From Promethearchaeota archaeon (GTDB taxonomy: Archaea > Asgardarchaeota > Lokiarchaeia > Sigyniarchaeales > SOKP01): 64,000 bases of DNA. A model generated the notes under the pieces. That model was given only the letters and a program-made list of their open reading frames with translations. It ran no database searches and was not told where the DNA came from. The DNA lies in NCBI GenBank assembly GCA_048938005.1, contig JBHLMQ010000010.1, positions 1-64,000 on the forward strand. Direction: 5' to 3'. Both the position numbers and the translations under genes were made by a program. Positions 11,881 to 62,104 of this stretch are shown here, in pieces; position 1 is the first letter of the stretch, and each line of letters starts with the position of its first letter.

Positions 11881-14833
<2,953 letters not shown>

Positions 14834-14836
14834 TAA

Positions 14837-15006
14837 ACCTCCTTTAATCTTTTTCGATTAAAATCACACTTATAGCGAACAAATCCGTGGGAAAATAACC
14901 AGAAAAAGATCATAAGGATTTGTTTCGCTCAAGATAATAATAAAACTGCGAGTAAATCAACTAAGGGTAATTCTTCCCTTATATTTATCTTTAAAGCAGT
15001 TTTATT
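14837..15006 (-). promoter_or_regulatory. Structured leuS leader with alternative helices (candidate attenuator)
   Basis: Inverted repeats 14939-14949/14996-15006, 14874-14886/14916-14929, 14840-14855/14902-14918 and 14843-14849/14856-14862. Confidence 0.65.
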
Positions 15007-15015
15007 TGAAACCAT
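14929..15015 (-). CDS. Leu-rich leader peptide upstream of leuS
   Basis: MVSNKTALKINIREELPLVDLLAVLLLS*: 8 Leu, 7 of them in the last 13 residues, including TTA-TTA-TTA before the stop. Confidence 0.65.
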   Translation of the reverse strand: MVSNKTALKINIREELPLVDLLAVLLLS

Positions 15016-15178
15016 TATTATAATGAGTATATATGTTTTTATATTAAAATATTTTTAGGTTGTTTAAAATACTAATTAGGAGAATAAGGAATAAATAGTC
15101 TTTTTTATTAAAGCATAGGAGATTTCTAAAATTTCTTACTATCTAATCATTTTTAACAAATTTCAAATTTAAGTATTT

Positions 15179-15799
15179 ATGTCAATAACTAAAAAAAATG
15201 CTGAAATCCAAGCAAAAAATATAGTAAAACAAGTTCTAGAAGAAAATGAGTTCCTATCTGAAGTATTAGAAGGGATTAAAGCTAGAGAGGATTCAATTAG
15301 ATATCCAAACGCTATTGCATTAGAGATTTTAAGTGAGAAAAATCCTGAAATTATTTATCCTAAATGGGATTTTTTTGTTGAATTACTAAAAAGCAAAAAT
15401 GCTTATCATAAATCAATCGCAATCTCCACAATTTCAAATTTAACTATAATAGATAGACAAAATAAATTTGAAGAGATTTTTGAACAATTTTTTAAGCTTA
15501 TTGATGATAAAAGTGTTATAGTTTCGAGAAAGCTAGCGATTTATGCCGGTAGAATTGTAAAATCTAAGCCAGAATTAAAAACCAAAATTACTAACGTTTT
15601 GCTTAGTATTAATGAAACTCAACATAATACAAGCCGGAAAGATTTAATTAAAGGAGATATAATTGTAAGCCTAAGTGAATATTTTGAGGAGATTAAGGAT
15701 AAAAAGAAAATTTTAGAATTTGCTAAGGCTCAATTAAGTAGTAGTAGTCCAAGTACAGTAAAAAAAGCTAGAGAATTTCTTTCAAAATGGGAAAAATAA
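15179..15799 (+). CDS. HEAT/ARM-repeat-like helical protein
   Basis: Repeated helix pairs such as IRYPNAIALEIL and LIDDKSVIVSRK. Confidence 0.6.
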   Translation: MSITKKNAEIQAKNIVKQVLEENEFLSEVLEGIKAREDSIRYPNAIALEILSEKNPEIIYPKWDFFVELLKSKNAYHKSIAISTISNLTIIDRQNKFEEIFEQFFKLIDDKSVIVSRKLAIYAGRIVKSKPELKTKITNVLLSINETQHNTSRKDLIKGDIIVSLSEYFEEIKDKKKILEFAKAQLSSSSPSTVKKAREFLSKWEK

Positions 15800-61960: not shown

Positions 61961-62053
61961 AGGCCCGTGGCGAAGCATGGATATCGCGGCAGCCTCCTAA
62001 CTTAAAGGAAAGGAGTAAGCTGACGATCGGGGGTTCAAATCCCCCCGGGCCTG
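61961..62053 (+). tRNA. tRNA-Arg(CCU) with 18-nt intron at position 37/38 (62000-62017)
   Basis: Acceptor AGGCCCG/CGGGCCT, D arm GCGA/TCGC, anticodon CCT at 61996-61998, T arm GGGGG-TTCAAAT-CCCCC, and intron GGAG pairing with CTCC (BHB-like). CCA is not encoded. Confidence 0.93.
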
Positions 62054-62104
62054 CTATTTTTCATCTTTGAAACTTTTTATATTATAGTTTTTTTTTCAAG
62101 TATA

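Follow-up and report, generated by a model that had tools for sequence, protein, structure and literature searches.

That bacteria gauge amino-acid supply by means of a leader peptide is textbook knowledge; the mechanism needs coupled transcription and translation and is exemplified by the transcription attenuators leuL, pheM-pheST and trpL of E. coli and the actinobacterial LEU element, and the T-box leaders of Firmicute leuS genes likewise report tRNA charging. In mycobacteria, leaderless short open reading frames (ORFs) of polycysteine type are presented as attenuators forming a 'ribulon', with the stalled ribosome proposed to remodel mRNA structure, in the available part of one report (bioRxiv 10.1101/834739). 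Here we describe a leader of related design in a 64,000-nucleotide stretch of DNA (the window) at the start of contig JBHLMQ010000010.1 (assembly GCA_048938005.1) of a Promethearchaeota archaeon. In this stretch a 28-codon ORF with a leucine-rich end precedes an archaeal-type leucyl-tRNA synthetase (LeuRS) gene, leuS, and its stop codon lies within the first of two competing RNA helices. We see about an even chance that this is an archaeal RNA switch of a new, translated-leader kind, one that probably senses leucine at leuS. The initial annotation of the window had remarked that cognate-codon leader peptides are not an established mechanism in archaea, and in our full-text searches we found no archaeal leader-peptide attenuator and no description of the leader motif. 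A conserved, covarying, leaderless ORF-plus-switch in front of LeuRS genes would show that Asgard archaea sense via the translating ribosome.

The locus resembles the bacterial attenuators in having a short 5′ ORF with cognate codons, mutually exclusive helices that start from the end of that ORF, and a fold that would be selected by ribosome position. Unlike them, it has an archaeal host, a leaderless ORF and no hairpin-plus-U terminator, and its alternative fold does not follow the 1:2/2:3/3:4 attenuator scheme but is a loop-to-downstream helix with pseudoknot topology. With the Firmicute T-box leaders it has in common a structured leader of an aminoacyl-tRNA synthetase (aaRS) gene that would report tRNA charging, but it has no Rfam match and no conserved specifier or T-box sequence, and carries a conserved ORF instead. 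The closest single known case, going by the available part of that report, is the set of mycobacterial polycysteine ORFs (10.1101/834739), with which it shares a leaderless short ORF, a codon run for one amino acid and the use of the same design at several loci; unlike those, it shows no pairing to the start region of the downstream gene, here leuS, its Shine-Dalgarno (SD)-like segment lies 40-70 nt upstream, and it is archaeal rather than bacterial.

The leader ORF, its promoter and the gene that it would serve are located in the window as follows.

14929..15015, minus strand: leader ORF of 28 codons (MVSNKTALKINIREELPLVDLLAVLLLS and stop), from ATG 15015 to TGA 14931-14929, with a Leu-rich tail.
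15036..15058, minus strand: promoter block of the leader transcript, BRE/TATA-like, CTAAAAATATTTTAATATAAAAA, conserved in 19/19 same-genus loci.
11881..14769, minus strand: archaeal-type leucyl-tRNA synthetase gene leuS, 962 amino acids (aa), the gene downstream of the leader, identified with NCBIfam TIGR00395 and Pfam.

The leuS product scored 957.6 bits against the NCBIfam model TIGR00395 (leuS_arch; cut-off 648.5) and contains the Pfam domains tRNA-synt_1 and Anticodon_1. Its start is ATG 14769, where close homologues (at least 67% identity) begin to match, at MYNPQ. The ORF upstream of it has 7 Leu among its final 13 codons, as had been noticed initially, and it is conserved in relatives: an ORF of 27-29 codons ending ...LVDLLAVLLL(S/F/L) and a stop was found in 19/19 genus loci and the ORF is present in the diverged locus L021 as well, and all length differences within the ORF among the 19 genus copies are of 3 nt. 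The promoter block, the hairpin and the purine-rich strand further downstream are likewise shared by these 19 loci and by L021. Across the wider family of leaders, 120 loci were fetched and 119 examined, L226, which gave no nhmmer match, being left out. An ORF of 20-32 codons is present in all 119, starting at model position 1 (ATG in 118, GTG in 1) and stopping at the foot of helix P1. The locus search demanded an ORF near the expected position, and a control with the other frames therefore matters; in the first 78 loci, frame +1 was open in none and frame +2 in 7. To judge by these alignments, the element thus has the short conserved 5′-leader ORF of an attenuator. Within the genome (29.8% G+C) the ORF stands out by its context, since no other of the 3,236 intergenic ORFs of 12-45 codons combines 7 or more Leu among its final 13 codons with a same-strand gene within 400 nt, while a six-frame count gave 39 equally Leu-rich ORFs (at least 7 Leu in the last 13 codons) among 12,681 of 20-40 codons.

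Upstream of the ORF, the TATA-like block TTTTAATATAAAAA lies at 15048-15036. The initial annotation had seen a TATA-like stretch at a distance suited to a leaderless start, and this spacing recurs through the family: a TATA-like word begins 28-36 nt 5′ of the leader ATG in 103 of 115 loci, and 57 of these have it at -34. Because this matches the usual archaeal distance from TATA box to transcript start, it fits a leader transcript whose 5′ end coincides with the ATG or lies only a few bases from it, that is, a leaderless ORF.

The RNA elements of the leader, whose helices are numbered P0 to P4, lie on the same strand.

14996..15006, minus strand: P0 5′ strand, AAUAAAACUGC, codons 4-7; RNAalifold prediction and covariation.
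14939..14949, minus strand: P0 3′ strand, GCAGUUUUAUU, codons Ala-Val-Leu-Leu; RNAalifold prediction and covariation.
14962..14981, minus strand: P0b, hairpin within the ORF (UAAGGG...CCCUUA); covaries, with GC, UA and AU pairs at two positions.
14916..14932, minus strand: P1 5′ arm, containing the stop UGA (14931-14929); about 93% of cells pair in the genus.
14872..14886, minus strand: P1 3′ arm, GGAUUUGUUCGCU.., with the same support as the 5′ arm.
14902..14918, minus strand: P2 5′ strand, UCCUUAUGAUCUUUUUC, the pyrimidine-rich P1 loop plus the top of the P1 5′ arm.
14840..14855, minus strand: P2 3′ strand, GAAAAAGAUUAAAGGA, running into an unconserved GGAGG (14842-14838).
14825..14829, minus strand: P4 3′ strand, CUCAA, pairing with UUGAG (14932-14928), which includes the stop codon, and closing the long alternative hairpin.

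The coordinates first proposed for the ORF, for the hairpin (arms 14929-14916 and 14886-14874) and for the competing helix all proved correct against the sequence, and the two helices are the P1 and P2 of the list. P1 overlaps the UGA stop, as had been claimed, and covaries. P2, whose partner strand GAAAGAGAUCAUAGG lies about 75 nt past the stop codon, shares the P1 5′ arm and loop, so the two compete directly, and it covaries too, with 4-5 covarying pairs in the genus alignments; L021 maintains P2 pairing with a different sequence. In the genus alignment 92.7% of cells pair, vs 37.9-50.0% with slid partners, and 22 cells are compensated vs 7.0 in shuffles, none of 500 shuffles having as many; with L021 added, 9 pairs and 27 cells are compensated. 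On 100 sequences from all classes of leader, aligned with a fit to P0, P0b and P1, 86.9% of cells pair (36.2-48.2% with slid partners), 39 of 44 pairs have changed on both sides, and 365 cells are compensated vs 130 in shuffles, a number that 0 of 500 shuffles reach. Helix by helix, P0, which pairs codons 4-7 with codons 23-26, is formed in 95-97% of cells in the genus and in 91-93% on the 100 sequences, where all 11 pairs have changed on both sides; P1 pairs in about 92% of cells with 12 of 13 pairs changed on both sides; and the P2 core pairs in 89.5% of cells although P2 lies outside the covariance model. P0, P0b, P1 and P2 thus appear as four helices supported by covariation. P4 occurs in the minimum free energy (MFE) fold of the window's leader, with 88% of cells pairing in 19 sequences and 2 pairs changed on both sides, which is weak support. 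The 249-nt leader as a whole folds at -53.9 kcal/mol into P0, P0b and P2/P4 (z = -2.98), and one of 200 shuffles folds as well.

A structure so strongly conserved, with covariation and a possible pseudoknot, could also act as a riboregulator that binds LeuRS by mimicking a tRNA (E. coli thrS being an example) or that binds tRNA(Leu) in the manner of a T-box, the ORF then being incidental, and aaRS genes are often autoregulated. We hold this to be very improbable. The ORF is open in 119/119 loci despite sequence turnover, the same fold stands before unrelated genes, and UGG-containing stretches are unconserved. No Rfam T-box model matched at its gathering score or at E values up to 10, of the Rfam amino-acid leaders, Phe_leader (RF01859) scored 18.3 bits vs 55 needed (E = 1.4), and neither Rfam nor nhmmer gave a known RNA family or a second copy in the window or the genome, where the element is single-copy.

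The results of folding bear directly on whether the two helices could act as a translated switch. Median energies are -15.9 kcal/mol for P1 and -23.8 kcal/mol for P2/P4, the latter being the more stable in 19/19 genus leaders, and yet when the transcript is cut off right behind the P1 3′ arm, 19/19 have P1 as their MFE fold. When a ribosome was represented by a constraint from -15 to +12 nt, an assumed footprint, P1 appeared in 0/19 folds with the A site on the stop codon, in 14/19 with the A site 3 codons before it and in 17/19 with the A site 7 codons before it. The initial proposal that a ribosome at the stop prevents the hairpin and an earlier stall permits it is therefore reproduced in footprint-constrained folds. 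P1 and P2/P4 both covary, as would be expected of a switch, and since P2/P4 is more stable yet P1 forms on the truncated transcript, P1 would be a kinetic fold set by ribosome position. In these models the leader has the mutually exclusive helices, chosen by the ribosome, of an attenuator.

We propose the following mechanism for a leucine-sensing switch. The 28-codon ORF would be translated as the leaderless first cistron of a structured leader of about 250 nt of the archaeal-type leuS. P1, whose 5′ arm starts at the ORF stop, could form once its 3′ arm is transcribed, and P2/P4 would be the longer and stabler helix in which the same 5′ arm and the P1 loop pair with a purine-rich segment about 75 nt on; the position of the first ribosome as the P1 3′ arm emerges would decide the fold. 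With a ribosome at the stop, P1 could not form because its 5′ arm would be covered, and with a ribosome held a few codons earlier this arm would be free and P1 would form. Because in leuS leaders about 60% of the last dozen codons are Leu, progress of the ribosome through the tail would report the supply of Leu-tRNA(Leu), and by stalling at its Leu codons, with a consequent effect on leuS, the element would act like a bacterial leader-peptide attenuator.

The distribution of the leaders allowed the composition of the tail to be compared with the gene that follows. Twenty sequences were used to build a covariance model of 177 positions, which matched 98 of 135 genomes, in 10 of 13 genera, of the window's Promethearchaeia (Lokiarchaeia, Asgard) family. 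The conserved Leu-rich upstream ORF with covarying helices, for which the initial annotation had suggested a search in relatives, was indeed found; in a sample of the order, the motif was present in 94 of 131 genomes of this family and in 0 of 19 from three sister families. With more than 100 members of well-defined architecture, it would be a new family among the structured RNAs. The element is always upstream of and co-oriented with a gene. Downstream of the 119 leaders are archaeal-type leuS (66), bacterial-type leuS (4, all in genus g21; TIGR00396, 657 bits, on the first 464 aa) and other genes (49, their leader tails being Ile-type, Val-type or not hydrophobic). The latter include an FrhB/FdhB-TrmB fusion of about 480 aa (11 loci by pattern and 7 by eye), genes for small acidic proteins (45-68 aa) next to a convergent aminotransferase gene (classes C, D and E, with 8, 4 and 9 loci) and, at one locus, an acyl-CoA dehydrogenase gene with an ETF-like gene behind it.

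Leu makes up a fraction of 0.58 of the last 12 codons where archaeal-type leuS follows (66 leaders), 0.62 where the bacterial-type gene does (4 leaders), and 0.04-0.50 in the other classes: 0.22 for FrhB (Ile 0.41), 0.04 for C, 0.50 for D and 0.33 for E (Val 0.45), the class 'other' of these statistics comprising 17 loci, 7 of them FrhB-type by eye. The Ile fraction is 0.01 in the archaeal-type leuS tails and 0.01-0.06 over all 70 LeuRS-linked leaders, while genome-wide Ile takes 10.4% of codons and Leu 9.7%. Leu positions vary mostly among synonymous codons (TTA 211, TTG 33, CTT 30, CTC 14 and CTA 12 in 43 tails), and this synonymous retention of Leu extends to linker codons that belong to no helix. 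Codons cognate to the regulated gene are thus enriched across the 70 LeuRS-linked leaders, as in an attenuator, and the association with LeuRS that had been suggested from one locus is strengthened, since two different LeuRS genes have Leu-tailed leaders and leaders of other genes do not. Over the structured part, identity of the four g21 leuS leaders is 66-71% to Val-tailed class E leaders from their own genus and 59-64% to the archaeal-type leuS leader that matches best. In the tree they fall into one clade with four class E rows (support 100/99), and a single clade of all leuS leaders was rejected (cost 52.9 log-likelihood units, p-AU 0.021). By sequence, then, the g21 leaders resemble their neighbours of the same genus and not the archaeal-type leuS leaders. 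Archaeal-type LeuRS was not found at E <= 1e-30 in 5 g21 genomes, and the g21 leader therefore serves probably the only LeuRS there.

A number of observations weigh against a leucine-sensing switch at leuS, and they concern the tail, the output step and the transcript. The leader tree has 105 columns only, its bootstrap is unsettled, and the tree group that was tested had been named after the pairwise identities were seen; moreover, the gene classes amount to few lineages, so the locus counts overstate independence. UUA is the commonest Leu codon of this genome of about 30% G+C. Two Leu codons of the window's tail are located in the P0 3′ strand and hence also under pairing constraint, so that some Leu codons are fixed by pairing, and in the g21 leaders (UUA)n is paired with (AAU)n. 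Sister leaders with Ile, Val or Leu tails precede the FrhB-TrmB fusion, the small acidic proteins and the acyl-CoA dehydrogenase, genes which appear to have no evident tie to branched-chain amino acids, and since sister leaders before such unrelated genes carry hydrophobic tails, the hydrophobic tail may be a family trait. Class D tails are 50% Leu with no LeuRS gene behind them.

These points could be accommodated by a generic translated leader in which folding still follows the ribosome but something other than leucine is sensed, the tail being a nascent-chain arrest or termination-pausing peptide or a by-product of P0 and the linker, and the leader sensing translation or coupling status or some other ligand. 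The ORF, the stop at the foot of P1 and the P1/P2 pair are common to all classes, even as the tails differ between Leu, Ile and Val, the genes other than LeuRS have no visible link to branched-chain amino acids, and the tail overlaps the P0 3′ strand, which covaries with N-terminal codons. We nevertheless consider this rather unlikely, because the 70 LeuRS-linked tails are specifically Leu in spite of Ile codons being equally common genome-wide, because Leu is kept synonymously even where no helix constrains it, and because close leaders in the same g21 genomes differ in tail by the downstream gene. A crude scan of the genome for further cognate-codon ORFs, a check that the initial annotation had suggested, counted every ORF of 100 aa or more as a gene and did not seek out the aaRS genes individually; 10 genes lay behind Phe-, Ile-, Ser-, Arg-, Lys- or Leu-rich intergenic ORFs, and none of them was an aaRS or of the matching pathway by Pfam. 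Nor did the Val-rich leader L223 reveal a link to valine catabolism, its acyl-CoA dehydrogenase being generic and below every NCBIfam equivalog cut-off.

The second group of points concerns the read-out, for an expression platform for leuS was not found and SD sequestration is excluded. In the initial annotation GGAGG was taken as the SD of leuS, to be freed or masked by the two helices. It lies, however, 64 nt upstream of the true start at 14769, it is part of the long-range helix, and it is unconserved, relatives having GGTGG, GGTGA, AGTGG or ATTAT at its position and one of them having the stretch deleted. The ORF behind it is the following.

14774..14833, minus strand: 19-codon ORF behind GGAGG, opening at ATG 14833; not conserved.

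ATG 14833 opens this short frame, which ends at 14774, and so is not the leuS start. Among 41 loci compared, an SD-preceded ATG ORF at this position was seen only in the window, in L022 and in few others, and GGAGG itself has an ORF behind it in the window and in a single relative only. No conserved SD or structure was found at the leuS start among the family leuS loci compared. Complementarity of the P1 loop to the 31 nt at the leuS start was at chance (median z 0.08 in 25 loci, class C rows being left out), while complementarity to the P2 region gave z -2.81 in the same test; a duplex over a downstream SD or start, as in the polycysteine leaderless ORFs and of ermC type, is accordingly not what this leader has. 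Because GGAGG is not the SD of leuS and the loop is not complementary to the start, the proposed ON/OFF logic is left with no demonstrated target, so that of the initial interpretation the sensing geometry stands and the SD output falls.

Three further candidates were considered. A second ORF that might couple the switch to leuS was rejected, since the 41 loci compared share none. The idea that ATG 14833 begins a frameshifted, Lys-rich extension at the N-terminus of LeuRS was rejected as well, homologues of at least 67% identity matching from MYNPQ and upstream open frames being sporadic. The T-run of the P1 loop as an archaeal terminator was weakened, as the run falls to T3-T4 in L021, L110 and L113-L116 while the pairing to the downstream strand is kept. 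No hairpin-plus-U terminator was found after the switch in a consensus scan and by eye, neither P1 nor P2 has a U-run behind it, and a bacterial-type terminator scan flagged only P0b inside the ORF, which is not meaningful here; intrinsic termination of the bacterial kind is thus not seen, but as archaeal termination signals differ, the leader may still have a terminator function. A 26-codon ORF, MIFFWLFSHGFVRYKCDFNRKRLKEV, at 14833-14913 on the minus strand, spans the P1 loop and 3′ arm; similar ORFs occur only in few relatives (L003, L006, L012, L010), and it is therefore probably a by-product.

If the leader does switch, the read-out could lie in transcript elongation or termination (e.g., FttA-type, on untranslated RNA), in RNA stability, or in ribosome loading at the exposed purine-rich segment. 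Plant pararetroviruses use a ribosomal shunt that depends on a short ORF plus a stem, and the leader resembles it in that its short ORF terminates at the base of a long, stable stem (P2/P4) whose 3′ foot lies upstream of the main start. It is unlike the shunt in that the stop codon is inside the stem and not before it, and we know of no archaeal scanning machinery. Transcription and translation can be coupled in archaea, and quality control of that coupling by FttA has been put forward as a hypothesis, according to the available part of one article (PMC11616081). FttA-type quality control is a plausible read-out at this leader, which would offer a concrete locus for studying both archaeal transcription-translation coupling and such control.

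The third group of points comes from the sequencing data, which also give a weak hint in favour of the leader transcript. Twenty runs contain part of the stretch, 19 of DNA and one of an RNA library; the RNA run contains 0.04 of the sampled words, as contigs from relatives, and stretches it leaves uncovered carry no evidence. One of its contigs covers 14487-14769, then 123 diverged letters, then 14901-14932, and so runs from the leuS coding region into the leader. Another matches 14903-15014, up to 1 nt inside the leader ATG, and goes on with a final 30 letters that repeat 14903-14932 in reverse complement, which hints at cDNA snap-back at an RNA 5′ end. Such contigs cannot prove starts, strand, level or single transcripts, and the library may contain DNA.

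The transcript data also bear on whether the ORF is simply an independent small gene, encoding a hydrophobic micro-protein or a small RNA with its own end, with leuS expressed from its own promoter in the A-rich spacer and the adjacency reflecting synteny. The ORF does have a strong promoter of its own, FrhB-class tails run to about 15 hydrophobic residues, the A/T-rich spacer could conceal a TATA-like site, and the missing expression platform would be explained. Type I toxin-like genes, which encode membrane-spanning hydrophobic peptides and have an antisense RNA partner, were considered as a comparison for both the leuS-class and the FrhB-class tails. The element, though, always stands upstream of a gene and in its orientation, with 125-161 nt from its stop codon to the start where this gene is archaeal-type leuS, and it is missing where the gene is missing, archaeal-type leuS being present in 19 of 24 genus relatives and the motif absent, like the gene, from the other 5. 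In g22-type leaders the spacer after P2 is only about 45 nt and by eye is free of TATA-like words, the tail agrees with the LeuRS genes, and the RNA-library contig, weakly, bridges leader and leuS. The leuS-class tail, moreover, has about 11 residues with a conserved Asp and is too short for a membrane span. We therefore regard an independent gene as improbable.

Returning to a ribosome-read switch, the sister leaders permit a broader and more tentative proposal, which we consider possible but do not favour: that they form a family of ribosome-read amino-acid sensors, the first in Archaea, in which a modular leaderless sensor ORF and a two-state RNA are used at several Lokiarchaeia-type Asgard loci, with Leu, Ile or Val tails tuning each copy to a single branched-chain aminoacyl-tRNA. 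Its targets would be LeuRS genes of two origins, FrhB-TrmB, the acyl-CoA dehydrogenase/ETF operon and the small acidic proteins, and its read-out would be neither a bacterial terminator nor SD occlusion but possibly FttA-type termination of uncoupled RNA or reinitiation or shunt over the long stem. If true, this would be a 'ribulon' tying branched-chain amino-acid supply to translation capacity and amino-acid fermentation.

These archaea have two LeuRS types, of which one would be under special control. The window's genome (G000) encodes a second LeuRS on contig C97 at 169304-172069 (locus L043:299-3079, minus strand), which is bacterial-type (TIGR00396, 961 bits over residues 4-781) with a C-terminal part of 320 residues matching archaeal LeuRS models; about 25 nt upstream of its ATG there is a TATA-like word, and no leader ORF precedes the gene. 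From its domain matches it looks like a chimeric or laterally acquired housekeeping LeuRS. The LeuRS query matched in all 41 genomes of the order that were searched, and among the matches listed, bacterial-type rows (covering only query residues 2-83 and about 634-960) were seen for most of the 41. A fast-diverged LeuRS-like subgroup, with the N-terminus ...YNYKKSEKKWQKKW...NFPFP, is found at L021, L242, L245 and L246 (genomes G013, G093, G101 and G094); the L021 protein is 34% identical to the window's LeuRS, and the Leu-rich leader is retained at all four loci, for which reason the subgroup may be a neofunctionalised paralogue. As to the cognate tRNAs, ARAGORN gave no tRNA-Leu in the genome, with 9 tRNAs found without the intron option and 16 with it.

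Among the other leaders, the small acidic proteins of classes C, D and E (e.g., L107, L118, L128, L216) often end in ...IAW and are often followed by a second acidic mini-protein and then the convergent class I/II aminotransferase-like gene; they had no Pfam or NCBIfam match and have a conserved neighbourhood. At the class C loci L075, L079, L083, L085 and L086 a gene of about 59 aa is preceded by a strong SD, GGAGGTGA, 6 nt and then CTG, at the position where sister loci (L087, class D) have ATG, and the class C gene possibly uses CTG as its start codon.

Elsewhere in the window, the divergent neighbour of the leader promoter (15179-15799, plus strand) encodes a 206-aa protein with a weak, sub-threshold match to Adaptin_N (22 bits vs 37 needed), possibly a HEAT/ARM-like repeat protein. 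At 61961-62054 on the plus strand lies a tRNA-Arg(CCU) gene with an 18-nt intron, which Rfam detects and which ARAGORN detects only with the intron option.

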